DNA of 64,000 bases from Candidatus Pollutiaquabacter sp. (GTDB taxonomy: Bacteria; Bacteroidota; Bacteroidia; AKYH767-A; 2013-40CM-41-45): positions 14,274 through 78,273 of the forward strand of contig CANIAS010000002.1 of NCBI GenBank assembly GCA_947465495.1. Direction: 5' to 3'. The position numbers were made by a program, and so were the translations under genes. A model generated the notes under the pieces. That model saw only the letters and a list, made by a program, of their open reading frames with translations. It did not search any database and was not told the DNA's origin. Shown in pieces: positions 1,872-23,576 of the stretch; the first letter of the stretch is position 1, and every line of letters begins with the position of its first letter.

Positions 1872-1898
1872 TATTGAAAATTATAAAGAAATAAACGG

Positions 1899-2774
1899 TC
1901 AAAATAGAGGAGTTCCCGATACTTGCATAGCGTGAAAAGCCAACACTGGAACTTCTGAATGATTGACTAACTTCTTGGTTAAACTTCTTGAAGTAAGTCG
2001 ATCAAAGAAATTCCGTCGACGCATTGAAACGGCAATCAAGTCATAAGATTCATTCGCACAATGGCTATTAAGTGCAACTTCTACTGATTCGCCTTTGAGC
2101 AATTGGAAGGTAATATTACTATAGGGAATACTACCCTGCACTTGTTTTTTAAACCAATCCATCAATTCAACCTCCACCGTATGCTCATCGGAAAGCTCCA
2201 CATGCGCTACAACTATTTCTGGTCCAAAATCCCGGAAATATTGCGTCAATAAATAGATAGATTGAAAATCATTGTCGGCATAATTGGTGGCAAACAGCAC
2301 TTTCTTGATTGCGTGAAAGTCTGAAACAATCGGGACAGCAATTACCGGACAACCACATTTCTCAATAATCTCCGAGGTATTACTTCCAAGCAAAATCCCT
2401 GATAATCCTCCTGCACCGTGAGTAGCCATCACGACCAAATCGAATTTTTCATCGGAAGCATAGGCAGCAATCTGATCGACCAATAAACCGGTTCCAGATG
2501 CTGTTTCCAAATTCTCAAAACCCGTTTCAACCTTAATTGCATGCTGCCAGGCCCAAAGTTGGGCGACTGCCTCCTGTTCAATTTCCGCTAAAGAGGTTAC
2601 AGCAATTAATTCCCGTTGACTAATTAAAGGGAGATGCACGGCATGAAATAAAACCACGCGACTATCCATTTTAGTAGCCAATCCTACCGCGTAATTCAAT
2701 GCTTTCCGTGAATCCTTAGAAAAATCTACAGGAACTAGGATCTTTTTAATGGGATGAATCTGATGAATTTTCAT
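1899..2774 (-). CDS. Universal stress protein, tandem UspA domains
   Basis: 291 aa. The N-terminus KKILVPVDFSKDSRKALNYA and a second half with ATHGAGG-like nucleotide-binding glycines are typical of a tandem Usp. Confidence 0.85.
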   Translation of the reverse strand: MKIHQIHPIKKILVPVDFSKDSRKALNYAVGLATKMDSRVVLFHAVHLPLISQRELIAVTSLAEIEQEAVAQLWAWQHAIKVETGFENLETASGTGLLVDQIAAYASDEKFDLVVMATHGAGGLSGILLGSNTSEIIEKCGCPVIAVPIVSDFHAIKKVLFATNYADNDFQSIYLLTQYFRDFGPEIVVAHVELSDEHTVEVELMDWFKKQVQGSIPYSNITFQLLKGESVEVALNSHCANESYDLIAVSMRRRNFFDRLTSRSLTKKLVNHSEVPVLAFHAMQVSGTPLF

Positions 2775-2933
2775 TAATTAGTATTGTCCAATAAAAGTAA
2801 GGCTCTAATTTTTCGTCGATTATGACTTAAATCATGTGCAACCACGATAAATGGTTGGAAATTCGCTAAACGTAAGAAACAAACGTCAAACTGGTGGATA
2901 TCAATTATATTTGAAGAACGTGACATCCCAATT

Positions 2934-4853: not shown

Positions 4854-4860
4854 CACTACC

Positions 4861-5916
4861 ATGAAAAAAATTTTATTGATTGAAGACAACAAAGAAATGC
4901 GCGAAAACACGTGCGAAATTCTGGAACTTGCCAACTACCAGGTGATTACAGCCAGTAATGGCAAAACAGGCGTAGACATTGCGCTAAAAGAGGTGCCGGA
5001 CCTTATCATATGCGATATTATGATGCCCGAATTAGACGGCTATGGTGTCTTATATCTTATCAGCAAGAACCCTACTACTTCGGGCATTCCATTTATTTTC
5101 CTAACCGCCAAAGCCGAAAAATCAGACATGCGTAAAGGCATGAGCATGGGCGCTGACGATTATTTAACAAAACCATTTGAAGAAATGGAATTGCTTAATG
5201 CTGTGGAAGCACGTATGCGGAAAAATGAATTATTCAAACGTGAGTTTTCTAAAAACGTAGACGGTTTAAATGAGTTTCTGGCAAATGCCAAGGGGATGGA
5301 GGAGCTTACGAAATTATCAGCAGAACGTAAACCTCACCATTACAAGAAAAAAGATGCTATCTACATGGAAGGTGACGAACCAACAGGGATTGTCTTCATT
5401 AACAAAGGAAAAATAAAAACGTTTAAGTCAAACAATGACGGCAAAGAATTCATTACAGGCATATATGGTGCCGGCGACTTTATCGGCTACAACGATCTAA
5501 TAGAAAATAAAGAACACAAAGAAACAGCTGAAACATTAGAAGACAGCGAAGTGGTAATCATCCCTAAGCAGGACTTCTTCTCACTACTCTACTCCAACCG
5601 TGATGTTGCCGCTAAGTTTATCAAACTACTTTCAAATAATCTCCAAGATAACGAGGAACGACTGTTAAATCTCGCGTATAATTCCGTGCGTAAACGCGTA
5701 GCCGATGCACTACTTAATTTGCAAGGTCGGTACACAATCGCGGGAAGTCCGCAACCTTTCAATGTATCTCGGGAAGATCTGGCAAGCATGGTAGGCACTG
5801 CGACAGAATCAGTTATCAGAACACTTTCTGATTTCAAGGAAGAAAAGTTAATCGAGATAAAAGATCGAAACATAGTCATCGCCAATACCGATCGCCTTAC
5901 ACGTCTCAAAAACTGA
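4861..5916 (+). CDS. Response regulator with a REC receiver fused to a cNMP-binding (Crp/Fnr) domain and a Crp-type HTH
   Basis: 351 aa. The REC domain reads KKILLIEDNKEMRE...DLIICDIMMPELDG...LTAK. A cNMP-binding beta-roll (IYMEGDEPTGIVFINKGKIKTF) follows, then a C-terminal HTH (SREDLASMVGTATESVIRTLSDF). The start is 8 nt after the kinase stop, so the two are probably one operon. Confidence 0.85.
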   Translation: MKKILLIEDNKEMRENTCEILELANYQVITASNGKTGVDIALKEVPDLIICDIMMPELDGYGVLYLISKNPTTSGIPFIFLTAKAEKSDMRKGMSMGADDYLTKPFEEMELLNAVEARMRKNELFKREFSKNVDGLNEFLANAKGMEELTKLSAERKPHHYKKKDAIYMEGDEPTGIVFINKGKIKTFKSNNDGKEFITGIYGAGDFIGYNDLIENKEHKETAETLEDSEVVIIPKQDFFSLLYSNRDVAAKFIKLLSNNLQDNEERLLNLAYNSVRKRVADALLNLQGRYTIAGSPQPFNVSREDLASMVGTATESVIRTLSDFKEEKLIEIKDRNIVIANTDRLTRLKN

Positions 5917-5944
5917 TTCTATACTTCTTAATTAAACACACAAA

Positions 5945-5979
5945 AATCCCGGCCGAAAAAATCGACCGGGATTTTAATT
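5945..5979. terminator. Bidirectional intrinsic terminator between the convergent REC-Crp and Hsp20 genes
   Basis: An 8-bp perfect inverted repeat, aatcccgg ... ccgggatt, has an A-run upstream and TTAATT downstream. Confidence 0.5.
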
Positions 5980-5998
5980 AAAAGAACAACACCAAAAA

Positions 5999-6433
5999 TC
6001 AGGCTATGGCTATTTCTTTCACCTTCTTGGCATACACCGCCGATTTAACAATTGACAATCGTAAGACACCATTCTCATAATTCGCCTTAATATCGTCTTC
6101 TTTGGCATTTTCAGGAAGTGTGAATGACCTTGAAAAGGATGAATAATTAAACTCTTTGCGAGTATAGTTCTTATCCTTGGTTTCCTTTTCAGATTTCTTT
6201 TCAGAACTAATGGTTAAGAGACCATCTGCCACTTTAACGTGAAAATCATCTTTTCGTAACCCAGGAGCCGCAAGCTCAATATCATAGGTCTTTTCAGTTT
6301 CAGAGACATTAACCGCAGGGACCCAATCGGAAGGAAACAAATCATCAAACCCTAAATTTTCACTTTCAAAAAAATCCGAAAGCACATTACGCATTACCGG
6401 AAAATACCCGTTACTTCTTTTCATGATTGACAT
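5999..6433 (-). CDS. Hsp20 / alpha-crystallin small heat-shock protein
   Basis: 144 aa. The alpha-crystallin core (YDIELAAPGLRKDDFHVKVADGLLTISSEKK...NGVLRLSIVK) is present. Confidence 0.85.
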   Translation of the reverse strand: MSIMKRSNGYFPVMRNVLSDFFESENLGFDDLFPSDWVPAVNVSETEKTYDIELAAPGLRKDDFHVKVADGLLTISSEKKSEKETKDKNYTRKEFNYSSFSRSFTLPENAKEDDIKANYENGVLRLSIVKSAVYAKKVKEIAIA

Positions 6434-6553
6434 AATAATTAATTTTTAAGTGTTAGAATAAAAAATAAATAACACTTCAAAACTACGCGAAGGTATCACC
6501 CTAACCGATGATGCCTATCAATGTCAATTTTGATTGATATCAGCGATTTGCCA

Positions 6554-7399
6554 TTAATCTAAAGGTCGATCAGTATATTTCAGGGACAACAACGGCAGCT
6601 CCACCCTATGCGACATTAATCGTGTAACGCTCGGATGAAACATGGATTCAGGAAAATGACGTTCATGTGTAAAAAGGACCAATAAATCGATTTTCATTTT
6701 TTTAATAAATTTTTCCAGCCCTTTAGAAACCACAGTATCCTTTGCAATGTATCCTGAAATTTTAGCATATTTTACGCTAGAGCGAATACGCTTAGTCATT
6801 TTATTAATGGCAAGATCATCGTGCAAAAGATGCTTATCATCTACAAACACAAAAGAAATTTCAGCATCAAATAGCGTGGCGAACGGTATGATCATGGATG
6901 CGGCCCGTATATTGTCTTCTTTGAGATCCGTGGAATAAGCTATTTTCTTAAACCCTTTGAATTTTACATTCATTGGAACCGTTAGAACCGCACAATGGGC
7001 ATCACGAATAACTTTTGCAGTAGTGCTTCCTACCAACATTCTGCGCCATTTGCTGGTACCGGTAGCGCCGACGATAATCAAATCCACACCTTTTTCATCG
7101 GCGAATGATACGATCTGATGATAAGAAACGCCTTCCGAAGAGACAGCCTCAGCTCTCAAACCAGGATGATTGCGTTTTAATTTATTTACCAAACGTAAAA
7201 GTTTCTTTTGAGACAGTTCATGCAACTGCTTGGTAGCATCACGAACTACGGTCATCGGGGCGTCGGTAAACATGGCCGGAACGTCATAAGCATGTTGAAT
7301 AATCAAATGTGCTTCTATGCGTACTGCTAATGCAGCGGCAAAATCCGCTGCAATCAGCGCGTTTTTCGAAAAATCAACCGGACACAGGATTAGTTTCAT
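6554..7399 (-). CDS. Universal stress protein, tandem UspA domains
   Basis: 281 aa. It has MKLILCPVDFSKNALIAADFA, GATGTSKWRRMLVGS and a second Usp half. Confidence 0.85.
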   Translation of the reverse strand: MKLILCPVDFSKNALIAADFAAALAVRIEAHLIIQHAYDVPAMFTDAPMTVVRDATKQLHELSQKKLLRLVNKLKRNHPGLRAEAVSSEGVSYHQIVSFADEKGVDLIIVGATGTSKWRRMLVGSTTAKVIRDAHCAVLTVPMNVKFKGFKKIAYSTDLKEDNIRAASMIIPFATLFDAEISFVFVDDKHLLHDDLAINKMTKRIRSSVKYAKISGYIAKDTVVSKGLEKFIKKMKIDLLVLFTHERHFPESMFHPSVTRLMSHRVELPLLSLKYTDRPLD

Positions 7400-7427
7400 C
7401 GCGTGCTTTTATAAATCTTTAAATTGA

Positions 7428-7631
7428 TTAAGCACGCAATTTATTTTGCAATTGACTGCTAAGTGCGCCTATCGCTTTGGAAAGCGCAAGGAGAGAAAGA
7501 AAGATGGCCAACAAGGCCACCATTAAAACACTATAAATGCCAAAATCATCATTTTGTACTGGAGCAGTCGACTGCGCAAAATTTAACAACGGAGTAATAA
7601 GAGTAAAGCAAATCAATAATAGGCGTTTCAT
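7428..7631 (-). CDS. Small hypothetical secreted/membrane protein
   Basis: 67 aa. A signal-peptide-like N-terminus (MKRLLLICFTLITPLLNFAQS) and a C-terminal hydrophobic helix are present. It sits 28 nt upstream of the Usp gene on the same strand. Only the ORF and hydropathy support it. Confidence 0.3.
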   Translation of the reverse strand: MKRLLLICFTLITPLLNFAQSTAPVQNDDFGIYSVLMVALLAIFLSLLALSKAIGALSSQLQNKLRA

Positions 7632-7836
7632 GACGAGTTTCTTTTTAACAATAATATAGTGACTCCCTTTAACCCATCATGACGAATATCAGTAAGTACA
7701 ATGAATTTGATCAATTTTATTTGTGAACTACATGTAATACTGTTAAAAAAAAACTGTAAACATCATGCATACATCTTGATATCGCTCATAAAATAATAAG
7801 CGTGCAAAGCATAGTTTTACAAAAAATATAATTAAA

Positions 7837-8061
7837 ATGGAAACAACATCTAACAACAACGGCCGCCTATTTGCAGCGCTATTAGGCGGTTTAGCAGCAG
7901 GAGCACTGCTTGGTGTACTACTGGCACCTAACAAAGGCTCTGAAACACGTCGTAAAATTGTCGATGAGACCAAAAAAGCCGGTGACAAAGTAAAAGGTAA
8001 GTTCCGAGAAGTTTATGAGGCGGTAAGCGGAAGCGGTGGACGAATGAACGACATGGCCTAA
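7837..8061 (+). CDS. YtxH-domain general-stress protein
   Basis: 74 aa. The N-terminal Gly/Ala-rich helix LFAALLGGLAAGALLGVLLAPNKGSETRRKI is followed by a charged tail, which is the YtxH pattern. Confidence 0.7.
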   Translation: METTSNNNGRLFAALLGGLAAGALLGVLLAPNKGSETRRKIVDETKKAGDKVKGKFREVYEAVSGSGGRMNDMA

Positions 8062-8069
8062 ATTAAATA

Positions 8070-8453
8070 ATGATTACTTTGCATAGAAATCATGCAACCA
8101 TGTCCGACAGTAATCACATCGACCAATTGGTGAGCAATACCAAAGAATACCTGGAAACCAGGGTAGAGTTGGTCAAGCTACAGATGATCGAAAAGGGAAG
8201 TGAAATGAGTGGCGCTGTAGTGGCCAACCTCACATTCATTTTCCTTTTCATGATCGTCCTTTCCTTCTTTAGCATAGCAGCAGCGCTATATTTAGGTGTC
8301 ATTTGGGGCGCATATTACTATGGTTTTCTTTTTGTTGGCGCGTGCTATTTGGCCGTCTGCTTACTTTTGTATTTCAATAAAGAAAGTTGGATCAAACGAC
8401 CTGTTTCCAACACCATCATCAAGGCCGTATTCAAAGAAACCGACCATGACTGA
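8070..8453 (+). CDS. Holin-like small membrane protein (the 'phage holin family' / Holin-X-like protein that accompanies YtxH in Bacteroidota)
   Basis: 127 aa with two hydrophobic helices. The real start is probably the ATG near 8100 (MSDSNH). It is conserved next to YtxH. Confidence 0.55.
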   Translation: MITLHRNHATMSDSNHIDQLVSNTKEYLETRVELVKLQMIEKGSEMSGAVVANLTFIFLFMIVLSFFSIAAALYLGVIWGAYYYGFLFVGACYLAVCLLLYFNKESWIKRPVSNTIIKAVFKETDHD

Positions 8454-8814
8454 ACATCGAATTCGAAACATTGATGAACTGCGTTCCGAAATACGCAGAA
8501 TGAAGCACCGTGCCAATGATCAGGAAAAACGAATCGCCGAAGACATTCAAGCCATCCGAGAAAGCCTTCGACCTGAAAACATACTCATTCGAGCACTGTC
8601 TAACATAACAGGAATCCAAATCAACAAAAGTGAGTTTTTGAAGAATGGTGTGTTAATGGGCATTGGTTTACTCCTCCAGCGCTTTGCTTTCAAATCGGAG
8701 AATGCCTTAGAACATAAAGTTTATCACTGGGTTGATCGATTATTCAATAAGTTGAAATCGTATGTGGCCCGTTTTACCAGTTCTCGTTCTGAAAAGGTAG
8801 ATGCGGAAAGCTGA
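8446..8814 (+). CDS. Hypothetical protein, third member of the YtxH operon
   Basis: The ATG at 8446 overlaps the upstream stop (ATGACTGA), indicating translational coupling. The product is 122 aa, charged and helical (MTEHRIRNIDELRSEIRR...). The longer track ORF from 8296 overlaps the previous gene and is rejected. Confidence 0.5.
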   Translation: MTEHRIRNIDELRSEIRRMKHRANDQEKRIAEDIQAIRESLRPENILIRALSNITGIQINKSEFLKNGVLMGIGLLLQRFAFKSENALEHKVYHWVDRLFNKLKSYVARFTSSRSEKVDAES

Positions 8815-8818
8815 TAGT

Positions 8819-9433
8819 TCAAACATGCAAAAGTGTAATCACCTGCTCGTCATTGACCTGCGGGAAATACGTATAAAACTCGCCTACTCCGACAAATTGC
8901 TCCGGTGTGTGTAAGCAGATAAATTCATCCACTTCCTTTTGAATTCGAACTGCTGCTTCGCGTGCTGCCACCGGAACTGCCACGATAATTTTTGTAGGGT
9001 TATATTTACGCAAGTATAAAACTCCCGCTAATAATGTTCGTCCAGTTGCTATTCCATCATCCACAATGATGACGGTTTTACCCAATAAATCTAACTGAAC
9101 ACTTTCTTGACCATATAAATTAGCGCGATCCTGGAGCATCCTGCGCAATCGGTATACTTCATTCTCCAAATACAAATTTGAAACAGGCTCCACCAAATCA
9201 TCCAGTAAAACTTGATCAAGTGAAACAGCGCCAATTGCATACTCTGTATTGGTAGGATGACCAATTTTTTTAATTAACAATGGCTTCAACGGCCAATGCA
9301 AATGATCCGCAAGTATTCTTCCTATCGGAACTCCGCCTCGGGGTATTGCAAAAACAACCCCATCACCTCCAATATACTTGCGCAGTAAGGGTATTAGCAA
9401 CTCAGCCGCGTGTTCGCGGTTTCGAAACTCCAT
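8819..9433 (-). CDS. Phosphoribosyltransferase (type I PRTase fold)
   Basis: 204 aa. The PRPP-binding loop VIIVDDGIATGRT is present, with FAIPRGGVPIG before it. Confidence 0.8.
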   Translation of the reverse strand: MEFRNREHAAELLIPLLRKYIGGDGVVFAIPRGGVPIGRILADHLHWPLKPLLIKKIGHPTNTEYAIGAVSLDQVLLDDLVEPVSNLYLENEVYRLRRMLQDRANLYGQESVQLDLLGKTVIIVDDGIATGRTLLAGVLYLRKYNPTKIIVAVPVAAREAAVRIQKEVDEFICLHTPEQFVGVGEFYTYFPQVNDEQVITLLHV

Positions 9434-13721: not shown

Positions 13722-14774
13722 ATGAACTCCTCCGTAAAAATAACGCCAACCCTCAAACTCCTTCAGTTAATTGTATTTGCCAGTATCATACTATACTTTG
13801 GGAAGCCGATTTTTGTACCAATTAGCTTTTCCTTGTTGATAAGCTTCATACTCTACCCAATATGCCAAGCTCTTGAAAAAAAAGGTGTTCCTAGAGGATT
13901 AGCAATCGGATTCAATTTGCTATGGCTAAGCGCACTATTAGGACTAATCGTTTATCTCTTATTCTATCAATTCGGAAGGTTCATAAACGACTGGCCCGCA
14001 TTGAAACAAAAATTATCATTTGCTTATCATGAATTACAACATTACATATTTATAAAGACCGGCGTAACCTTACCAGAACAAGACAACTGGCTAAAACAAA
14101 CTATATCGCAATCATCAGGCAATGTGTTTAAATTCTTAAAGACGTTTATATACAATGCAGCCATCAACGTTGTGCTATTAATTCTTATACCTATACTGTC
14201 AGGATTAATTCTATATTCTAGAGAACGGTGGGTAAAAGTACTTTATATGTTGTTGCCAAATCTTGAACACCAAGAAATCAGAAACATCCTAAAAGAATCT
14301 ATCCACGCCTACTATAATTTCATCAAAGGAATGGGCACCGTATACATTGTGGTGGCAATTCTAAACTGTATTGGCTTAATCATCCTTGGAATACCACATG
14401 CCATTCTATTTGGATGCATCGCCTCTGTCCTCACATTCATACCGTACGTCGGCATCCTTGTTGCCTCCTTGTTACCAATTACAATTTCATGGCTAACTTT
14501 CGACTCCATCTGGTATCCCATAGGTGTTATCGTGATCTTTACAATAGTCCAGTACCTAGAAGCGAATGTGATCTTTCCTTTGGCAGTTAGTAGCCGACTC
14601 AGTTTAAACACCTTTATCACCATTGTTGTGATTTTAGTTGGTGGATTACTTTGGGGTGCAGCTGGCATGATCTTATTTATTCCATTCATCGGAATAATAA
14701 AGCTAATTGCCGATCGAAGCGAAAAACTCGCAGGCCTTTCGATGCTACTTGGGAACGGAAAAATTCATCCATGA
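13722..14774 (+). CDS. AI-2E family (PerM/YhhT-like) transporter
   Basis: 350 aa with about 8 TM helices and the typical AI-2E topology. Conserved FIPYVG and LLWGAAGMILFIPF segments are present. Confidence 0.75.
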   Translation: MNSSVKITPTLKLLQLIVFASIILYFGKPIFVPISFSLLISFILYPICQALEKKGVPRGLAIGFNLLWLSALLGLIVYLLFYQFGRFINDWPALKQKLSFAYHELQHYIFIKTGVTLPEQDNWLKQTISQSSGNVFKFLKTFIYNAAINVVLLILIPILSGLILYSRERWVKVLYMLLPNLEHQEIRNILKESIHAYYNFIKGMGTVYIVVAILNCIGLIILGIPHAILFGCIASVLTFIPYVGILVASLLPITISWLTFDSIWYPIGVIVIFTIVQYLEANVIFPLAVSSRLSLNTFITIVVILVGGLLWGAAGMILFIPFIGIIKLIADRSEKLAGLSMLLGNGKIHP

Positions 14775-14776
14775 AA

Positions 14777-15547
14777 TTATCGGAATTGGCTTTGAGGAAT
14801 TGAACCCACCCGTTCCATATATTTGGAGGCAAAGTCATATCCGACTTTAAAAATATCCTCCATATCTACTTTATCAAAAACACCAAATCGACACAAGTCA
14901 GGAGGCTCAAGGTATAAATCGCATAATTTCTTACGCGCTTTGACGGTCTGCCAAGCACCCAGGGACATCAATCGATCCATTAAGGCAAAGGCAGTATTAA
15001 CAGATCGTCCTTTGACCCATGGATTTACATGCACTCCTACCAACGTTACATCTTCTTCGAGAAAAGGCTCCACCGGTAAGTTATTAAGTACTCCGCCATC
15101 TACCAATTGATTTCCATCAATCAAAACAGGTTCGAACAACACTGGGATGGATGAAGAAGCTAGCAGTGGCCGGATCAATTCTCCTGCCGTAAAAAAATCG
15201 GAATGACCTTGAGTGAGATCGCTGCTGGAAACAATTAAAGGGAAATTCAATCGTTCAAATCTATTATCGGGGAAATAATCTAACAACACATTGCCTAATT
15301 TCTCCAATGTCATTACCGGATGACCATTTTGAGGTTGTAGCAGTTGAAACAGATCTCGTTTTATAAGAATTTGCAGAATTTCATCAGGTGTATATCCTCC
15401 CGCCAAAAAAGCACCTGCTACCGCTCCGCTACTAACACCAGAAATCGCCTCTAGCACCATTCCCCGTTGTTGCAGTGCTTTCACTACTCCCAAATGTGCC
15501 ACTCCACGGACACCACCGCCAGATAGTACTAGATTTATAGGTTGCAT
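14777..15547 (-). CDS. Patatin-like phospholipase
   Basis: The oxyanion hole LVLSGGGVRG, the serine lipase motif GVSSG and a downstream DGG are all present. 256 aa. Confidence 0.9.
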   Translation of the reverse strand: MQPINLVLSGGGVRGVAHLGVVKALQQRGMVLEAISGVSSGAVAGAFLAGGYTPDEILQILIKRDLFQLLQPQNGHPVMTLEKLGNVLLDYFPDNRFERLNFPLIVSSSDLTQGHSDFFTAGELIRPLLASSSIPVLFEPVLIDGNQLVDGGVLNNLPVEPFLEEDVTLVGVHVNPWVKGRSVNTAFALMDRLMSLGAWQTVKARKKLCDLYLEPPDLCRFGVFDKVDMEDIFKVGYDFASKYMERVGSIPQSQFR

Positions 15548-15556
15548 AAGCTGAAA

Positions 15557-16672
15557 TTAGGCATGAAGTGCAACGGTTGCATGCTTTCGCAAGGACTGCC
15601 GATAAGAAACGAATTCCATAATATTTTCAAAATCGAGATATCCCTTAAAAGAACCATTTTCTTTGACCAGTAGCAGAGCAGTTTGATCTGCTTGCATGGA
15701 AGCAAATACCTTTTCCAACGGATCATCGGCTTCAGCTGTTTGAATGCCACGTCTCATACAGGTCTCCACAAAGACATCCTGTCCATGCAAACCTATTTCT
15801 TCAAACAATAACTTACGATCAATTGTACCAACCGGTAAATCCCCCTTAAATACCACAAAACGCTCAGTTTGCGTATGTAACAATTGGTCGACCACTTCGC
15901 GAAGTGTAGAATCTGCAGCAACGGCATCCATGTTAGGCATAATGACATCCTTTACTTTGGCACCTCGCAAGAACTCACGTGATATACTCTGAGTAAGCTC
16001 CATCTGCGCTGCTAACAGAACAAAAACTCCCACAAAAGCCAAGATAGCGTTAGAATATAAACCCGATAATATCATGATCATGGCAATCAACTGACCGATC
16101 CTTACAGCTACGCGTGTAGCCTTTAGACGATCTAATCGCAAGGATAGCAGTCCATGCAAAATCCTACCGCCATCCATGGGATAAGCGGGAATTAAATTAA
16201 AAAGCGCCAGCACTACGTTTGCATAGTAAAAGTGAGCCATCCAATTCCTTATAGTGAGTTCACTCATCACAGAAAACGCTGGCACACCTGAATCAATGAA
16301 AAAGAAAACGTATATCAAAACAGCCAATATGACATTGACTAATGGTCCGGCTAAAGAAACATAAACTTCCTCTTTAGGCACATCGGGTAATCTATCCATG
16401 CGTGCCATTCCCCCAATGGGTAGCAGTACAATATCACGCGTAGTGCATCCATAACGGCGGGCCGTTAGCGCATGTCCTAACTCATGCAAGACGACGGTTG
16501 CAAATACAGCCAATACTAACAGGAATAAGAGCACTGTGGATTCGAATCCTGATTTTAAATAAGCCTGTGACAAACCCAGGTAAATGAAAAGCAACAAAAA
16601 GGTCCAATGGACATAAATGCCAATACCGAATAAACTAATCAGCCTCCACGCTCCTTTTACTGCTTGTTTCAT
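15557..16672 (-). CDS. Site-2 protease family (M50) zinc metallopeptidase with a C-terminal CBS pair
   Basis: HELGHAL (HExxH) lies in a TM helix, a second-site NLIPAYPMDGG is present, and CBS-like domains occupy the C-terminus. 371 aa. Confidence 0.85.
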   Translation of the reverse strand: MKQAVKGAWRLISLFGIGIYVHWTFLLLFIYLGLSQAYLKSGFESTVLLFLLVLAVFATVVLHELGHALTARRYGCTTRDIVLLPIGGMARMDRLPDVPKEEVYVSLAGPLVNVILAVLIYVFFFIDSGVPAFSVMSELTIRNWMAHFYYANVVLALFNLIPAYPMDGGRILHGLLSLRLDRLKATRVAVRIGQLIAMIMILSGLYSNAILAFVGVFVLLAAQMELTQSISREFLRGAKVKDVIMPNMDAVAADSTLREVVDQLLHTQTERFVVFKGDLPVGTIDRKLLFEEIGLHGQDVFVETCMRRGIQTAEADDPLEKVFASMQADQTALLLVKENGSFKGYLDFENIMEFVSYRQSLRKHATVALHA

Positions 16673-17067
16673 TTCAACGTAGTTATTTTCACAGCGAGTT
16701 TCTTTAACAAATCAAGTTCGACAGGTTGTAATCCTCTTGCTGCCACAGCTGTATCCTTCAACAAATGAAGTGATCTTTTCTTAGTTTCTTCAGAAATACG
16801 AACGCCTTTATTCTCCTTCACAAAATTGTCAAAGGAAGAAAGTATCTCGTGCGGCTTTGCATTTTTCTCAAGCATATTTTTAAAAGCAATCTTAGCAATC
16901 AGCACCTCGGCGGCAGCTTCACTATTTTCAGCGTCTTGAGGTCTCATCAACCATTCCCGGAACATGGTGTTTACCCGATTGATTTCCGCTTCTTGAATGG
17001 TGCCGTCAATTGCAGCTACTGCATATACTAACTGACCTAATTGCTCATAGAATTTTCGATGTGACAT
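16669..17067 (-). CDS. TerB-family (tellurite-resistance-like) protein
   Basis: 132 aa, all-helical. VAAIDGTIQEAEINRV matches the TerB pattern. The stop overlaps the S2P start (ATGA). Confidence 0.65.
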   Translation of the reverse strand: MSHRKFYEQLGQLVYAVAAIDGTIQEAEINRVNTMFREWLMRPQDAENSEAAAEVLIAKIAFKNMLEKNAKPHEILSSFDNFVKENKGVRISEETKKRSLHLLKDTAVAARGLQPVELDLLKKLAVKITTLK

Positions 17068-17164
17068 AGCGATGGAGTTTTAAAGGGGAGAAACCCTTAC
17101 ATCAGTATTAAATTTATTTTTGAAAACATAATTAGAATTGAAATGGGAATAAAATTGCACTCAA

Positions 17165-17998
17165 TTAAACTGTACCAGGAAAGACGATAAGCGGAAGTCT
17201 GGTGTGATATGCCATCCTTTTAGTTAAACTTCGTTCAAAGAGTTTACGCATGAATGGCCGATGTCGAATTGTCATTGCAACCATATCCGCATCCACTTCT
17301 TCCAAATAATGATTAATGGAAGAGTATACATCAGTCCCATCCAATAACTTAAAACTTATTTTACTGAAATGGCTATCTTCACGTATACTTTCCATGAATT
17401 TCTCAATGGCATCAAATTCAAATGTGCGATCGTATTTACCACTTGTAATATGAAGGAGTATGATTTCAGCTTGCAGAACGCGAGCAAAATCGATTACCTG
17501 TTCAATATTGCCAAAATCGCCTTCCTCATAACTGGTAGCAAAAACAATACGATCAATCGTCTTCTTTGTAGACAGTTCAGGAATGGCAATAACCGGACAT
17601 GTACTATGTTCAAACACGGAAGCAGTGATGGTGCCAATCAACGCTTCGCGTAAGCCAGAGGCCCCCTTCGTACCCATGATGATTAAATCTGCGGATGATT
17701 CAATGGCAGATTTTGGAATTTCATCTTCAGCGTACCCGGCCGAAGCATGAACATTGAATTTCAAGGCTGGGTACTTTTTCAAATATCGCTTACGGACATC
17801 GCCAAGCCCATCCAGTGAATTTTTCTCCAATTCTGCATCCGAAGGAATGGCTAATGGGAGATCAGTAGCATAAATTGGCGACACGTATGAATGGTGCAAG
17901 ACAATTTCAGCCTTTAACTTTAAGCTTAGCCCGCAAGCAAAATCCAATGCATGGTCAGCATCACGAGAGAAGTCGGTAGGGACCAGTATTTTTTTCAT
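17165..17998 (-). CDS. Universal stress protein, tandem UspA domains
   Basis: 277 aa. It has MKKILVPTDFSRDADHALDFA and GTKGASGLREALIGT. Confidence 0.85.
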   Translation of the reverse strand: MKKILVPTDFSRDADHALDFACGLSLKLKAEIVLHHSYVSPIYATDLPLAIPSDAELEKNSLDGLGDVRKRYLKKYPALKFNVHASAGYAEDEIPKSAIESSADLIIMGTKGASGLREALIGTITASVFEHSTCPVIAIPELSTKKTIDRIVFATSYEEGDFGNIEQVIDFARVLQAEIILLHITSGKYDRTFEFDAIEKFMESIREDSHFSKISFKLLDGTDVYSSINHYLEEVDADMVAMTIRHRPFMRKLFERSLTKRMAYHTRLPLIVFPGTV

Positions 17999-18027
17999 AT
18001 CATTATTTTCATAAGATGAAGAGCTAA

Positions 18028-19113
18028 TTAATAATACTTGACGACTGCTATTTTCTGGAAGTCAGTCAATCGACCATTGGAAACAAATTGTATGTCTCCC
18101 TTACTTCGTAATACCATCTCAATGAGATCATCGACTGCATCAGAAATATTACGGTGGGAGCCAGGAAGAAGTTGATCCACGTGAATGGACATACCATCTT
18201 CCCGGAAATAGGCTGGTTGCACATAGTCTTTTTCAACCAACAACAACCTACATTGCCCCTCCGTAACCGCACGCCAGACCTCCTCCACGCCGGCTGCGTA
18301 ACTTCCTTTACTTACCGCTGAGGCCAGCGACAAAAGGCTTTTCTCCTCTACTTCTTGGTTAACTTTATCTAAAATAGGCTCCAACAACTTTCTTAACTGC
18401 GGTGATGTAGCATGTTCGTAATTACCCTCCACAAAACCAATGGTATTGCGCTCATTAGCAGACTGAGCTTTGATGTAGCCTAAAAACTTCTTGTCGCCCA
18501 TAAAAACGATTGGCGTATCGGAATTGCCTAACGCTTGATGAACCGCATGATCTATTAGCCGCAAAAAATTTCGTATGTTTTTTTCGTTATATGCCTTCGT
18601 ATCAAGGTATTCCCATCCTGGTAATGAATGATTATTTGTTACATCAGCGATGTTATCGGGCATATCCTTGAAAACTACCGGAAAGAAGATTTTTCCATAA
18701 ACCATAGAGGTCCGCACTCCATTCTTTGTAATAGCAACCAATAAAAACTGCTTATTCAGTTTGACGGAATAGACCAAGTCACGCACTTCAAAAGAATCGT
18801 CGACAACTACTTTTTCTGTGACGTTGAATGGCAACTGAACCAATCGAGCATGATGAGGAGAAACGTAAATAGCAAGGCCTTCAGAAAGTTGGGTATAATT
18901 GATTTCGTCCACAGTATCATGTAACCTTCTCATCATCTCTTCTGTTTTTTGTTTACTGTAACGATCATGGAGTTGACTTTGCACTTGTGATACCAAATCA
19001 ATCATATGTTCTCGATCCAACTTGAAAGCAGGATATTGAGGGTGAGTTGGGACGACAATTGAAATCGCAGGAAATTCTTTTTGACCGATCAAGTCTTTTT
19101 CGAGGAGTTGCAT
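18028..19113 (-). CDS. eRF1/Pelota-like protein lacking GGQ (a bacterial baeRF-type release-factor homolog). Hypothetical.
   Basis: 361 aa. Three segments align by eye to eRF1 domains 2-3: FLLVAITKNGVRTSMVYG ~ FGFIVIDGSGALFGTL; GFVEGNYEH...KVNQEVEEKSL ~ ISYGGENGF...NVKFIQEKKL; KGSYAAGVEEVWRAVTEGQCRLLLV ~ [23 protein letters not shown]. No GGQ is present in the equivalent loop. Confidence 0.5.
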   Translation of the reverse strand: MQLLEKDLIGQKEFPAISIVVPTHPQYPAFKLDREHMIDLVSQVQSQLHDRYSKQKTEEMMRRLHDTVDEINYTQLSEGLAIYVSPHHARLVQLPFNVTEKVVVDDSFEVRDLVYSVKLNKQFLLVAITKNGVRTSMVYGKIFFPVVFKDMPDNIADVTNNHSLPGWEYLDTKAYNEKNIRNFLRLIDHAVHQALGNSDTPIVFMGDKKFLGYIKAQSANERNTIGFVEGNYEHATSPQLRKLLEPILDKVNQEVEEKSLLSLASAVSKGSYAAGVEEVWRAVTEGQCRLLLVEKDYVQPAYFREDGMSIHVDQLLPGSHRNISDAVDDLIEMVLRSKGDIQFVSNGRLTDFQKIAVVKYY

Positions 19114-19333
19114 GGCAGATTTATTTTAGATTGAAACTCCTGTAAACGTACGCGTCGAAAAACAGAACACCGATGACTGCGGACAAGGCAAGCAGTGATT
19201 TTGCTCACCCATTTTTAAAAACACTAATTTGATGCGGCAACGCGCTATTGTATAAATAGTCACTATAAATCAATTCTGGAAATCGTGGATTAAAACACGA
19301 ATTTGAACGGATTTTTTTATATTTTTAGTCTCG

Positions 19334-20098
19334 ATGAAAAAGAGACTTACTATTGATTTAATTTACAACTTGGTTTTAGCAGGACTACTATCATGCATGT
19401 TGCCTGGCTGTGAAAATGACACTGTTTATCCATTATCTACTACCAGCACTCTTAAGATTAATGTTTCTAATACGGTAAATGGAACATCTTTGCAACTGGG
19501 GCAAATGGCATACACAAACGTATCAGGAAACAATTATCAAGTTGATCTGTTACGATATTACTTGTCCAATTTCTCGCTTGTGAAATCCGATAGCAACTAT
19601 TATAACCTCCGGAATTACGACTTAATAGACGCCGAAAATGCGGAAAGTTGCAAGATCACCGGCGACAACGTTCCCAACGGGAAATACACCTACCTGTGTT
19701 TTTATGTCGGTGTGGATAGCACCCATAACAATTCCATTGATCAAACCGGCGACCTAGATCCACTGTATGGTATGTTTTGGCCCTGGAATACCGGTTATAT
19801 ATTTTTTAAGCACGAAGGGTATTATGTGGACTCTTTAGGATCGACCAATAACCTACTATTCCATTATGGAACAGCGCCTGCATTGGTTACAGTGGCCATT
19901 CCTGTTAATATTGAACTATCGGGTAGCACTTGCAGCATCGATCTGCAATTTGATTTAAATTCGGTGTATAACACACCGACCCCAATTGATTTTAACGTGG
20001 ACAATTATCATCAATCTGCCTCGGGTAGCGAACGAGATTGGATTGAAACCATGAAGCAAAATCTCTCAACCGCCTTTACCATCACCGCCGTACACTAA
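19334..20098 (+). CDS. MbnP-family lipoprotein (periplasmic copper-binding partner of di-haem peroxidase MbnH). Putative.
   Basis: 254 aa. A lipoprotein signal is present with lipobox Cys (LLSCMLPGC). It lies 8 nt upstream of a di-haem cytochrome c peroxidase, which is the canonical MbnP-MbnH pairing. The assignment rests on context and size, not on verified motifs. Confidence 0.5.
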   Translation: MKKRLTIDLIYNLVLAGLLSCMLPGCENDTVYPLSTTSTLKINVSNTVNGTSLQLGQMAYTNVSGNNYQVDLLRYYLSNFSLVKSDSNYYNLRNYDLIDAENAESCKITGDNVPNGKYTYLCFYVGVDSTHNNSIDQTGDLDPLYGMFWPWNTGYIFFKHEGYYVDSLGSTNNLLFHYGTAPALVTVAIPVNIELSGSTCSIDLQFDLNSVYNTPTPIDFNVDNYHQSASGSERDWIETMKQNLSTAFTITAVH

Positions 20099-20105
20099 TT
20101 TCAAC

Positions 20106-21155
20106 ATGGACTTTCGCAGGGTACTCTTTTTAATAGCATCGATCTACTTAGTCATAGTGGCATGCAACAAAGACGAAGTAGAATCCGTCAGTAACGGCCC
20201 TACGCCATATCAGCTTAGTATTCCGTCATCGCTGCCACCGATGAATATTCCAGGATCAAATCCACTGACCGTGGAAGGCATCGCACTCGGAAGAAAATTG
20301 TTTTACGACCCATTATTATCGGGCAACAATATCCAATCTTGTGGAGACTGCCATAATCAGGCATTCGGCTTTACAGACAACAATTTTGCACTCAGTACTG
20401 GGATTGATGGAATCGATGGAACTAGAAATTCGATGCCGCTGTTTAATTTAGGATATGCTTCTAATTTCTTTTGGGACGGTGGTGCCACCACGCTTGAATC
20501 GCAAGTTGTAGGACCGATTACCAATCCGATTGAGATGCACGAAGACCTTACCAATTGTGTCAACGAGCTTAAATCGCAACCAGACTACCCGGCTCTATTC
20601 AAAGCTGCCTTTCAAACTGATTCGATTACGATTTCTATGGTAATGAAAGCCATTGCCCAATTCGAACGCACCCTGATTTCGGGCAGCTCAAAATACGATC
20701 AGTCAGTAAAAGGACAGGTCGCGTTGACTTCTCAAGAAGAGAGCGGAAAGCTAGTATTCCTCTCTGCCGCAAAAGGCGATTGCACCCACTGCCACATTTT
20801 AGGCAGCACCTTCACCGATTTTGCCTACAAGAATAATGGATTAGATTCTATTTCAGCGGACAGTGGCCGGGCTCGTATTACACTCAACCCAACTGACCTC
20901 GGTAAATTCAAAACACCTAGTTTACGTAACATCGCGGTAACTCCACCCTACATGCACGATGGTCGATTTTCTACCTTGCAACAGGTGATAGAGCACTACA
21001 ATACCGGTTTTCATTACGCAGCCAATCTAGATCCAAATCTTCAAAATGCAGTGAAAGGTCGAATGAGCCCCCAGGAGATTAGTGATCTGATTGCTTTTTT
21101 AATGACCTTGACCGATACCGATTTTCTGTCCAATCCTGCTTACGGACATCCGTAA
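20106..21155 (+). CDS. Di-haem cytochrome c peroxidase (CCP/MauG/MbnH family)
   Basis: 349 aa. There are two CxxCH haem motifs (CGDCHNQAF and CTHCHIL) and the conserved MauG/CCP segment PSLRNIAVTPPYMHDG. Confidence 0.85.
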   Translation: MDFRRVLFLIASIYLVIVACNKDEVESVSNGPTPYQLSIPSSLPPMNIPGSNPLTVEGIALGRKLFYDPLLSGNNIQSCGDCHNQAFGFTDNNFALSTGIDGIDGTRNSMPLFNLGYASNFFWDGGATTLESQVVGPITNPIEMHEDLTNCVNELKSQPDYPALFKAAFQTDSITISMVMKAIAQFERTLISGSSKYDQSVKGQVALTSQEESGKLVFLSAAKGDCTHCHILGSTFTDFAYKNNGLDSISADSGRARITLNPTDLGKFKTPSLRNIAVTPPYMHDGRFSTLQQVIEHYNTGFHYAANLDPNLQNAVKGRMSPQEISDLIAFLMTLTDTDFLSNPAYGHP

Positions 21156-21239
21156 TTATCAATTTTTCTTCTGTTAAAAGCTCCCTATTAACTCCAGGAG
21201 CTTTTTACTATATTTCGAGTTGTTAAACATACCCTGTCC

Positions 21240-23576
21240 ATGAAAAAACACCTATTGTTGCTAGTTGTGCTGTTTTTGATCCAATCACAAAGCTACGCAG
21301 CCTGTCAGACTGGTTACACTGAGGTCATCGTTCAGATTATTCCTGACAGTTGGCCGAATGAGATTTCCTGGCAACTCAGTGAATCCGGAGGAAACATCCT
21401 TCAGAGTGGAACTTCAGAAGGAGATACACTGTGTGTGCCTGTCGGATCCTGTCTGGAGTTTGTCATCAACGACAGCTATGGCGATGGAATTTACGCTCCA
21501 GGCGGTTATTGGCTTTACGTTGATGGCATTCAAGTTGCGACTGGCTACAACTACGGCTCGCAGGATATGGTAGCTCTGAATTGTCCGCCCGGCATGCATT
21601 GCACATCGCCATTAGAAATTACCTACGGTACCCATTGGGCAACCTTCGAAGACACGTGGTTTGTATATACGGCTGACTCATCTGGCACCTATAACTTAAC
21701 CACCTGCGATAGCAACAGCTGCAACACACAACTTTGGTTATACACCAGTTGCCCGACCCTTCCTTATACGGATGGACCGATGGGATCCTACATCTACAAC
21801 GACGATAATAATTGCGGTACCCAAGCCAGTATGAATTTCACCCTGGTAGCTGGAACTACGTACCTCATTCGTATTGGCGACAACGGAGGCGACTGCTCCG
21901 ATTCAATCAATTTTAGCTTCTCTTATTTCGGACCAGTCATGGGTTGTATGGACCCCTCGGCCTGCAATTTCAACCCGCTGGCTACAGTATCCGACAATTC
22001 ATGTATTTATTACCCAAATCCGATGTGTCAAGGCCCTGACCTTCAGTTTGACTCACTGTCGTTCATCAATAGCATCTCCTTACAAACCTTCAGCGCATCT
22101 ACATGCGACGTAGCCGAAGGATGTGTGACTGGATATGGTACACGATACGTATTGTCCTTTACTTCCAAAATTAACAACATAGGGACTCAGGATTATTACA
22201 TTGGAACACCCTCGTCTCAACCAGGCATGTTCAATACCAATAATTGTCACGGACATGCACACTACGAAGGGTACGGCGACTATCGACTGTACGATTCCTT
22301 GGGAACCATTGTACCGGCAGGCCATAAAAACGGCTACTGTGTGATGGACTTATGCGGTATGGGCCAATACAACTGTGGCGACATGGGCATTTCAGCAGGA
22401 TGCTATGATGTGTATGGCGCCGGCACACAATGCCAGTGGATCGACATCACCGACGTAGCAGATGGCGACTATCGCTTGGCCATCCTCATCAATTCCCAAC
22501 ACCTCCCGGATGCGTTGGGTCATTACGAAACCAATCATCTCAACAACGCCCTTCAGATTTGCATTCGAATTACGCATAACGCACAAGGTGTTCCTAGCTA
22601 CTCTATACTTCCAAATTGTACTCCTTACGTCGATTGCAACGGAGTACCAGGAGGAGTATCAGAAACAGATTGCAATGGAATTTGTGGCGGACCTTCTGTA
22701 TACGGTGACCTTAATTCGGATGCCTTATTGAACACAGCAGATATTACTAGTTACATGGATCAAGTAGAATCCCAATTCTCTGCTACAACGTGTAATGATC
22801 TGAACGGAGACGGAGAGCTAACCATATTCGATGTAGCACAATCAAATTGGTGTTATTACGGCAATCCGAATATTCAAGGCGGCACTCACAATCATTGCCA
22901 ATTTCCGCGCAACCTAATTAGCTTCACTGACACTTCCGAATTGAGTATAGTCGCATTCGATCCTATTAACAACTACATTGATGTTGGCTTGAAAAATCCG
23001 CGCGTAGGGATCAAAGGATACCAATTTACGGTGAGTGGCATCGATGTGTTTTCTTACATCAGCATGATCAACCCATTGCAATTCCAGGCAGACGTGCGAT
23101 ACATTCCTGCTACCCATGAGGTCATTGCATTTGGCCTGAACGACTCCACGATTCCTAGATCTACATTACCACGTCCATTGATCCGTCTGTTCTACAACAA
23201 TGTAACAGATACAGTGGTTTGTATCAGTTCGATTTCTGACATCATGAACGAACGTGGGGAAGGTACCATACCCGCACTCGCAAACAACTGTCGCAGTTTC
23301 AGCACAACCAATGTAAGTTCCCTGTACAAAAACGCTGCACTGATGGTGGTTCCAAATCCTGCGAAGGACGAAGCTTACTTACACATATCAGAAGGATTCA
23401 ATCCGGGTGCTACCATCATGATGGTCGACATAACTGGAAAACAATTCCAAGTTTCTGTAGCGCAATTGCGAAAAGATTGGGTGAAATTAGACTTGAAGGA
23501 ACTTCCAAATGGAGTTTATATGATTCGAATTCTGGATGGCGATTATGCCGGTACAGCGCGAGTTGTAAAACTCTAA
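21240..23576 (+). CDS. Secreted multidomain protein with a lysyl-oxidase-like copper amine oxidase catalytic domain, dockerin-like Ca-binding repeats and a T9SS C-terminal sorting domain
   Basis: 778 aa with a signal peptide. The LOX copper/LTQ core is [18 protein letters not shown] (vs human LOX CHQHYHSMDEFSHYD), [10 protein letters not shown] (vs GHKASFCLED) and [27 protein letters not shown] (vs [27 protein letters not shown]). The dockerin-like repeats are [13 protein letters not shown] and [13 protein letters not shown]. The T9SS CTD is [14 protein letters not shown]...GVYMIRI...RVVKL. Confidence 0.8.
   Translation: [778 protein letters not shown]

Follow-up and report, generated by a model that had tools for sequence, protein, structure and literature searches.

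The window analysed here is a stretch of 64,000 nucleotides (nt) from contig CANIAS010000002.1 of assembly GCA_947465495.1, which comes from Candidatus Pollutiaquabacter sp., an uncultured Bacteroidota bacterium. Our subject is a cluster of five minus-strand genes within it, headed by a gene for a homologue of the ribosome hibernation factor Balon, and probably forming a single operon that belongs to a regulon for general stress or low-oxygen dormancy. In the direction of transcription the genes are as follows.

18028-19113, minus strand: baeRF gene, 361 amino acids
17165-17998, minus strand: tandem universal stress protein (Usp) gene, 277 amino acids
16669-17067, minus strand: TerB-like gene, 132 amino acids
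15557-16672, minus strand: M50 plus CBS protease gene (site-2 protease, S2P), 371 amino acids
14777-15547, minus strand: patatin gene, 256 amino acids

Five minus-strand open reading frames (ORFs) had been placed at these coordinates by an earlier reading of the letters without database searches (the sequence-only reading), and the ORF listing and the raw sequence bear this out. The stop codon of the TerB-like gene overlaps the S2P start by 4 nt (ATGA), 9 nt (tttcagctt) separate the S2P and patatin genes, and 29 nt separate the baeRF and Usp genes, all as previously described; the gap between the Usp and TerB-like genes is 97 nt and not 98 nt. The description of a tight, co-directional cluster of stress character is also supported, as is the remark that this exact gene set has no name. 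The GC content of the cluster (0.40-0.41) is that of its flanks. An Rfam scan of positions 14000-20000 at E ≤ 0.1 returned no RNA family, so that the gaps hold no riboswitch or leader RNA. A scan of the same interval for sigma-70 promoters and intrinsic terminators found fewer sites than in shuffled sequences, which makes it uninformative for a Bacteroidota genome; it placed no terminator-like site inside the cluster.

The product of the first gene matches the Pfam family baeRF_family3 (PF18845; E 1.8e-21, 77.7 bits against a cut-off of 31.5 bits) and, from end to end, the NCBIfam model NF052287 ("AOC03_06830 family ribosome hibernation factor"; E 1.8e-69), residues 8-361 aligning to model positions 4-361 at a score under that model's curated cut-off. 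Residues 6-361 also match PDB entry 8rd8_B (E 9.5e-25), a chain that we take to be Psychrobacter Balon and that carries the deposit label "Methyl-accepting chemotaxis protein". Neither a GGQ nor an NIKS motif is present in the 361-residue sequence, and the lack of both is a trait of Balon and of Rv2629 (PMC10901736). By these matches the gene probably encodes a full-length homologue of the Balon-family (baeRF family 3) ribosome hibernation factors, with predicted ribosome binding. The earlier label "eRF1-like" under-reads this gene, which anchors a conserved core of baeRF, Usp and S2P genes.

The second product matches PF00582 (E 4.3e-30) in two stretches and is thus a tandem-domain Usp of 277 residues. 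The third scores 19.2 bits against TerB (PF05099), under the Pfam gathering score of 24.4. It is all-helical and soluble, no transmembrane segment was found in it, and its predicted AF2 structure has a pLDDT of 93.8. A word-indexed homologue search with this protein gave only 3 near-identical matches, and an exhaustive HMMER search was needed, which recovered 81 relatives at E ≤ 1e-3 among 1.84 billion representative proteins, nearly all of them stand-alone proteins of about 130 residues. The family shares an N-terminal signature FY..LG.L.YA.A..DG..Q..E and a C-terminal A.A..G....E; PF05099 is matched at E < 0.01 by 32 of 56 members (best E 3e-7), and the window protein has TerB-type structural neighbours. 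The protein is best called a divergent member of the TerB-fold superfamily and not a Pfam-grade TerB. The family is probably under-annotated: in L001, one of the loci fetched for comparison (designated L001, L002 and so on), an intact TerB-like ORF at 7612-8004, overlapping the S2P start by 4 nt, is uncalled in the public annotation (GCA_046052345.1).

The fourth product matches Peptidase_M50 (PF02163; E 4.8e-26) and, over residues 302-355, the CBS domain (PF00571; E 1.2e-8, 35.6 bits against a cut-off of 24 bits), and the CBS-pair protein 2ef7 aligns weakly to residues 240-353 (E 0.0093). It is closest to MjS2P (3b4r; E 6.4e-37) and SpoIVFB (E 1.1e-10). The motifs HELGH63 and NLIPAYPMDG159 are intact, as well as invariant in 14 homologues, and the hydrophobic segments, spanning residues 11-228, are confined to the N-terminal 230 residues. 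We therefore predict an active CBS-type S2P. The group to which it would belong is defined by one or more C-terminal CBS domains, and outside sporulation its natural substrates are unknown, even for MjS2P (PMC11486902). The M50 plus CBS family is very large, with more than 6,186 clusters at E ≤ 1e-10.

The last product matches the patatin family (PF01734; E 2.5e-35), and its motifs GGGVRG10, GVSSG37 (with Ser39) and DGG150 are intact and align to those of PlpD. It matches the patatin domain of PlpD (5fqu; E 4.7e-33) and RssA (E 2e-17) better than the CBASS lipase (E 2e-8), and neither a transmembrane or hydrophobic segment nor a signal peptide is present in it. These features predict a short, cytoplasmic RssA/PlpD-like phospholipase of 256 residues that is catalytically active. 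Its homologues form a continuum of "NTE family" proteins of about 255 residues across Bacteroidota. The orthologue at 62% identity (L170) lies in a copy of the whole operon, whereas patatins at 44-45% identity (Dyadobacter, Rhodocytophaga and one JGI contig) lie in unrelated neighbourhoods with neither an S2P nor a TerB-like gene. In two of these three loci a metallo-beta-lactamase-fold gene is directly upstream of the patatin gene, and in two of the three a PlsC-type acyltransferase gene adjoins it or is one gene away; acetyl-CoA carboxylase and diacylglycerol kinase genes are near the Rhodocytophaga copy. On the basis of these contexts, what had been taken for an effector is a widespread Bacteroidota patatin that was recruited to the end of the operon in one clade.

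Gene order among the relatives of the window is conserved to differing depths.

L001: baeRF, Usp, TerB-like, S2P, patatin
L170: the same five genes in the same order
L005: baeRF, Usp, TerB-like, S2P, a beta-lactamase-family gene, patatin (one gene inserted)
L011: Usp, TerB-like, S2P, patatin (the contig begins within the Usp gene)
L002, L003 and L010, a sister lineage: baeRF, Usp, S2P (neither TerB-like nor patatin)

The inserted gene in L005 (8162-9337) encodes a serine beta-lactamase-family protein (PF00144). Identity of the S2P to that of the window is 42-52% for L001, L002, L005 and L010, and 45% for L011. The window cluster is flanked by MbnP and CCP genes on one side and by AI-2E, Mla and Nramp genes on the other; both sides are kept in L001 and L002, both in part in L010 and L170, and one side only in L003 and L005, the side kept by L005 being that of Mla and Nramp. 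Horizontal acquisition of the module was considered and rejected, since the GC content equals that of the flanks and the flanks are conserved. The Usp gene directly follows baeRF in L001, L002, L005, L010, L119 and L170, and the TerB-like gene overlaps or abuts the S2P start in L001, L005, L011 and L170.

We then scanned more widely from two anchors, annotating the loci with iterated hidden Markov models built from the window proteins. A scan with an S2P alignment, in which each GTDB species was represented by a single genome, yielded 80 loci spread over many phyla, which were annotated within ±8 kb, and a scan of metagenome contigs with a TerB-like alignment gave another 80 loci, many on short contigs. 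The genes found near each anchor are as follows.

S2P anchor, patatin: 1/80 (the close relative L011)
S2P anchor, TerB-like: 8/80 (L011; the Flavobacteriaceae metagenome-assembled genomes (MAGs) L053, L054, L060, L063 and L075; Daejeonella L019; L022)
S2P anchor, Usp: 15/80
S2P anchor, baeRF: 4/80 (L010; L080, Saprospiraceae, directly adjacent; L048, Armatimonadota; L055, Eisenbacteria)
TerB-like anchor, Usp: 23/80 (in 18, the gene directly downstream, from a cluster of mostly tandem Usp)
TerB-like anchor, S2P: 2/80 (L119 and L145)
TerB-like anchor, baeRF: 1/80 (L119)
TerB-like anchor, patatin: 0/80

Chance expectations for the adjacency of Usp and baeRF genes are rough and assume typical copy numbers. 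The metagenome contig L119 also has baeRF near or next to S2P, and linked Balon and S2P genes are met repeatedly, in Bacteroidota, in Armatimonadota and in Eisenbacteria. Balon-Usp-S2P is the conserved core, to which the TerB-like and patatin genes were added as accessory genes in this clade.

These counts bear directly on the proposal, made in the sequence-only reading, that the TerB, M50-CBS and patatin genes, with TerB as a sensor or scaffold, resemble a signal-to-effector stress or abortive-infection-like system. In a defence system of this kind the protease would free or activate a membrane-lytic phospholipase. The tight coupling of the genes (the ATGA overlap and the 9-nt gap), the intact catalytic residues of the patatin with its weak matches to PADLOC models (E 2e-11) and to the CBASS effector, and the joint presence or absence of TerB-like and patatin genes in the clade all agree with such a system. 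The trio is confined, however, to the clade of the window (L001, L005, L011 and L170): in the loci annotated here the patatin gene follows S2P nowhere else, so that the synteny by which the trio was to be judged does not extend beyond close relatives. PADLOC 2.0 gave no match for the S2P, TerB-like or baeRF products, a single chance-level Cas12a match for Usp (E 0.0037), and only weak, generic phospholipase matches for the patatin, which scores 33.7 bits against the 200-bit cut-off of the CBASS lipase model. In addition, the patatin has neither a membrane anchor nor a pro-sequence for an intramembrane protease to cut, its orthologues at 44-45% identity occur without S2P or TerB-like genes, the core context is stable and vertically inherited, the annotated genes include none from mobile elements, the base composition does not shift, and the operator described below is common to the operon and to Hsp20 and Usp genes. 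A defence function is, in our estimation, very improbable.

The evidence for a regulon comes from the DNA upstream of baeRF. When this region was aligned for five lineages, in which protein identity is only 40-50%, three non-coding elements were found to be conserved: two TGA-N6-TCA palindromes exactly 22 bp apart and, some 23 nt further downstream, the element TAcgTTTAC, in which the columns TA..TTTAC are invariant. The boxes have the core TGAT-N4-ATCA in most copies, which is of the FNR/CRP family type, and the -7 consensus of Bacteroidota promoters is TAnnTTTG. The corresponding features of the window, together with further copies of the operator and a candidate regulator pair identified by Pfam and by tblastn with island proteins, are as follows.

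19174-19207, minus strand: tandem FNR/CRP-like operator upstream of baeRF, made up of two TGA-N6-TCA boxes whose starts are 22 bp apart
19143-19150, minus strand: putative Bacteroidota -7 promoter element TACGTTTA, separated by 29 nt from the start codon of baeRF
6509-6542, minus strand: second copy of the tandem operator, without mismatch, ahead of the minus-strand Hsp20 gene at 5999-6433 and followed by a perfect TAGTTTTG
7680-7713: third tandem operator, perfect, between a 67-codon ORF with a Usp gene (6554-7631, minus strand) and the plus-strand pair of a YtxH-like and a Holin-X-like gene (7837-8453)
2823-2834: single box ATGACTTAAATCAT, in the intergenic region between a Usp gene (1899-2774) and the divergent PAS histidine kinase gene
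2934-4853, plus strand: PAS histidine kinase
4861-5916, plus strand: response regulator with receiver, cNMP_binding and Crp-HTH domains

The promoter-proximal box of the operon's own operator has one mismatch (TGTCCGCAGTCA). A tandem operator lies upstream of baeRF in every relative for which upstream sequence is available, with perfect boxes in L001, L002, L005 and L010 and a one-mismatch pair in L170. The element TACGTTTA is a probable -7 promoter element, and if it is one, the two boxes would be centred near -41.5 and -63.5, the layout of a class-II activator.

The window shows no enrichment of single TGA-N6-TCA boxes, with 30 where 24.8 are expected, whereas pairs at 22 bp number 3 against 0.17 expected (300 shuffles, with a maximum of 2). 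All three pairs lie in the promoters of stress genes, the other two being 11-13 kb from the operon. Across 169 fetched loci, 60 pairs have a spacing of 22 compared to 3-16 at each other spacing from 16 to 29, and a pair at this spacing is found within 300 nt directly upstream of 11 of 73 TerB-like genes, with at most 1 at any other spacing. Tandem pairs precede the order baeRF-Usp-(TerB-like)-S2P-(patatin) in L001, L002, L003, L005, L010 and L170, baeRF-S2P in L080, S2P in L028 (Hymenobacter) and L040, TerB-like-S2P in L145, TerB-like genes in many loci, Usp genes in L019 and L105, a PPDK gene in L018, and an Hsp20 gene in L145. With a conserved palindromic operator shared among the promoters of its members, this gene set would be, as judged from sequence, a Crp/Fnr-type stress regulon. 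The regulator pair also neighbours TerB-like, Usp or S2P genes in L039, L053, L054, L060, L063, L075 and L105; in L105 a TerB-like gene and the pair of response regulator and PAS histidine kinase are followed by two tandem operators ahead of Usp-Hsp20-Usp.

Several of these loci deserve description in their own right. Positions 1899-8453 of the window form a stress island, in which the product of the 67-codon ORF is hydrophobic. L145 has six tandem pairs in 14 kb of a metagenome contig (3070-12152), a dense copy of the regulon in which the genes among the pairs encode Hsp20, DUF892, a PolX-type DNA polymerase, TerB-like-S2P, two Usp, DUF2267 and a BON-domain protein. In L080, a distantly related Saprospiraceae MAG, genes for subunits of a 2-oxoacid:ferredoxin oxidoreductase (2095-5003) are divergent from baeRF-S2P, and a tandem operator with one mismatch (5313-5346) lies between the two units, an arrangement that fits a low-oxygen regulon.

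On this evidence we favour the reading that places all five genes in a single operon, part of a regulon for general stress or low-oxygen dormancy, and we give it a probability of roughly 0.68. An activator of the Crp/Fnr family would bind the pair of FNR-like boxes ahead of the Balon gene, the likeliest candidate being the receiver-cNMP-Crp response regulator encoded 12 kb away beside the PAS histidine kinase, and binding would turn on the operon at the same time as the genes for Hsp20, for two more Usp and for membrane stress proteins of the YtxH type. As the cell shuts down, the products would then work in parallel on separate parts of it. The Balon homologue would fill the ribosomal A site and hibernate ribosomes, and the tandem Usp may bind adenine nucleotides and restrain growth, as does Rv2623 (PMC5309233). 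The CBS-type S2P would cleave one or more membrane proteins, possibly gated by a nucleotide at its CBS pair, with the co-translated TerB-fold protein as its accessory or regulatory partner, and the patatin would remodel membrane phospholipids. The TerB-like protein was also considered as a substrate of the protease, an idea that we rejected because the protein has no transmembrane segment.

A number of points weigh against this reading. Co-transcription is deduced from the gene spacing and the conserved single promoter upstream, and the low-oxygen signal from the FNR-like box, the PAS domains, the oxidoreductase genes of L080 and the analogy with DosR discussed below. Co-location is what ties the regulator pair to the tandem operator, and 22-bp tandem boxes were not seen in the Flavobacteriaceae islands that have the same regulator pair. 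The baeRF product scores 234.9 bits against NF052287, for which the curated cut-off is 330 bits. Only 4 of the 80 S2P loci have baeRF nearby, and Balon is therefore no general companion of the S2P family. Moreover, the TerB-like and patatin genes are present or absent together within the clade, which, as a single evolutionary contrast, could reflect a tighter sub-module than a set of parallel actors. Finally, the 97-nt gap between the Usp and TerB-like genes, which is only 3-37 nt in relatives, holds the sequence TAAATTTA, and this could be an internal promoter.

The last point invites an explanation in which there are two transcription units, baeRF-Usp being regulated by stress and TerB-like-S2P-patatin being constitutively expressed from the gap, so that the module is partly a positional coincidence. 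Besides the length of the gap, the resemblance of TAAATTTA to the conserved -7 box TACGTTTA and the absence of the tandem operator from the gap are as this explanation would have it. A gap of 3-37 nt in L001, L005, L011 and L170, however, leaves little room for a promoter, the S2P gene begins 53 nt after Usp in L002 and L010, and no terminator-like site was placed within the cluster. In addition, tandem operators precede TerB-like-S2P in L145 and S2P in L028 and L040, which places the TerB-like and S2P genes in the same regulon even when they are apart from baeRF. We regard two units as improbable, though less so than a defence system.

The translational coupling of the TerB-like and S2P genes, which is kept in L001, L005, L011, L170 and L145, raises a further alternative. 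Here the CBS-type S2P is the centre of a pathway of regulated intramembrane proteolysis and cleaves a membrane-tethered regulator, such as an anti-sigma factor or a pro-transcription factor, the TerB-like protein is its inhibitor or adaptor, and Balon, Usp and patatin are mere co-expressed neighbours. To our knowledge, all characterised bacterial S2Ps act in signalling. SpoIVFB (PMC11486902) and RseP are precedents for such a role, and a TerB-like gene is at most two genes from S2P in Daejeonella (L019), L022 and Aquimarina (L060). Against this, no gene for a sigma or anti-sigma factor or for a membrane-tethered regulator was seen by the S2P gene in the window or the clade, the TerB-like gene is directly followed by Usp in 18 loci but accompanied by S2P in only 2 of 80, and a sister lineage keeps S2P without the TerB-like gene. 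That no natural substrate is known for the CBS-type group, even for MjS2P, also weighs on that side (PMC11486902). We consider this alternative unlikely, if slightly less so than the two-unit arrangement.

To return to the stress operon that we favour, its composition agrees in part with what is known of Balon genes, which are typically found in stress-response operons and of which Rv2629 is a hypoxia-induced homologue (PMC10901736). The full-length window homologue without GGQ or NIKS sits with stress genes, and Hsp20 belongs to its regulon, which is the arrangement reported for Balon operons (PMC10901736). The neighbours named in that work are RaiA, Hsp20, OsmC/OsmY, HdeD, MarC/EmrB and RtcB, and the terms Usp, "universal stress" and "protease" did not turn up in a search of its text (PMC10901736). 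Burroughs and Aravind linked baeRF genes to HPF, and a text search of their paper found Usp, S2P and CBS not to be mentioned; no RaiA/HPF gene, by contrast, was seen beside the baeRF gene of the window. A literature search for a described Bacteroidota regulon of Usp, Hsp20, Fnr and S2P found nothing. We read the cluster as a Balon-containing stress operon whose operator and regulator architecture we did not find described.

The closest parallel, by analogy, appears to be the DosR block of Mycobacterium tuberculosis, Rv2623-Rv2631, which contains the Usp Rv2623, the zinc metalloprotease Rip3 (Rv2625c), the CBS-pair protein Rv2626c and the Balon homologue Rv2629 (PMC5309233; PMC2442614; PMC10901736). 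The block thus holds the tandem Usp, metalloprotease, CBS-pair and Balon families, with Hsp20 (HspX) elsewhere in the regulon, and it is induced by low oxygen or nitric oxide through a two-component system. Rv2625c itself presumably carries M50 plus CBS domains like the window S2P, according to database annotation. The two differ in phylum and in gene order, DosR is of the LuxR type whereas the window has a receiver-cNMP-Crp hybrid with FNR-like boxes, and the TerB-like and patatin genes have no stated counterpart in the block.

The individual proteins can be compared with known systems in the same way. The S2P shares with MjS2P and SpoIVFB the HExxH and NxxPxxxxDG motifs, a multi-pass membrane core and C-terminal CBS, but its partner in the window is a soluble TerB-fold protein, and neither a pro-sigma-K-like substrate nor BofA- or SpoIVFA-type membrane inhibitors are encoded nearby. 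With RssA/YchK and PlpD the patatin shares the Gly-rich oxyanion loop and the dyad of Ser39 (GxSxG) and Asp150 (DGG); it differs in having only 256 residues and neither POTRA nor beta-barrel passenger architecture, in scoring 63 bits against the RssA cut-off of 272 bits, and in its recruitment to the end of a stress operon in this clade. The patatin fold with an intact dyad is likewise common to CBASS CapV and PADLOC phospholipase effectors, whereas the cluster has no cyclase, sensor or other defence partner and does not lie in a defence island. A helical signature of two "DG....E" repeats relates the TerB-like protein to TerB (PF05099) of the Ter system, from which it differs as a stand-alone protein of about 130 residues, under the gathering score, with no adjacent TerC, TerD or TerZ genes.

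Other contexts were noted around these families. The gene directly after a TerB-fold gene is most often a tandem Usp gene, and lycopene cyclase and PEMT/NnrU-like genes are frequently close by; in a second recurrent context the order is Kelch-repeat protein, O-methyltransferase, TerB-like, beta-eliminating lyase (loci for these contexts: L097, L098, L149, L150, L153, L156, L158, L160, L162, L163, L165, L167 and L169). In L048 (Armatimonadota; 201-9092) genes for a histidine kinase, baeRF, NfeD, SPFH/Band-7, an alpha/beta-hydrolase esterase and further proteins including YetF, and then for a CBS-type S2P, lie nearly all on the same strand, another grouping of Balon with membrane-protein quality control. 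Divergent beside the operon in the window, at 19334-23576, are genes for MbnP (19334-20098), a di-haem CCP/MauG-like peroxidase (20106-21155) and a secreted protein of 778 residues, whose L001 homologue matches Lysyl_oxidase and the type IX secretion (T9SS) domain Por_Secre_tail; this looks like an MbnP/MbnH-type copper-related cluster and is conserved in L001, L002 and L170.

A gene for a two-HKD phospholipase D (PLD)/cardiolipin-synthase-like protein lies directly downstream of, or overlaps, the CBS-type S2P gene in L006 (8091-9251), L013, L015, L029 and L031, that is, in four Flavobacteriaceae (three labelled Flavobacterium) and the gamma-proteobacterial MAG L029. It is nearby in two further gamma-proteobacterial MAGs, L069 and L085, and a P-type cation ATPase gene is often upstream. 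The PLD may be a non-homologous counterpart of the patatin in position, which hints that a lipid enzyme behind S2P is a recurring theme, with the PLD and patatin cases each representing a small number of evolutionary events. A bolder version of the favoured reading can be built on this, in which the CBS-type S2P, its TerB-fold partner and a lipid enzyme (patatin here, PLD in Flavobacterium and gamma-proteobacteria) form a membrane arm of ribosome hibernation, energy-gated proteolysis controls entry into and exit from Balon-dependent dormancy, and the Bacteroidota PAS histidine kinase with its receiver-cNMP-Crp partner and the tandem FNR-like boxes is an undescribed DosR-like dormancy regulator. 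We hold this to be a speculative extension with little likelihood of being right as a whole.

For practical purposes, the candidacy of the cluster as a defence system fails, which saves follow-up effort in that direction. What the window offers instead is a clean, conserved case in which a Balon-family factor heads an operon with a recognisable operator, and so a testable entry point to the induction of hibernation in Bacteroidota. The TerB-fold family, small and uncharacterised, is also defined as a member of the same regulon. Moreover, CBS-type S2Ps travel with Balon and Usp genes across phyla, a linkage that may be of interest to work on hibernation and on Rip3, and that hints at a dormancy role for M. 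tuberculosis Rip3 (Rv2625c).

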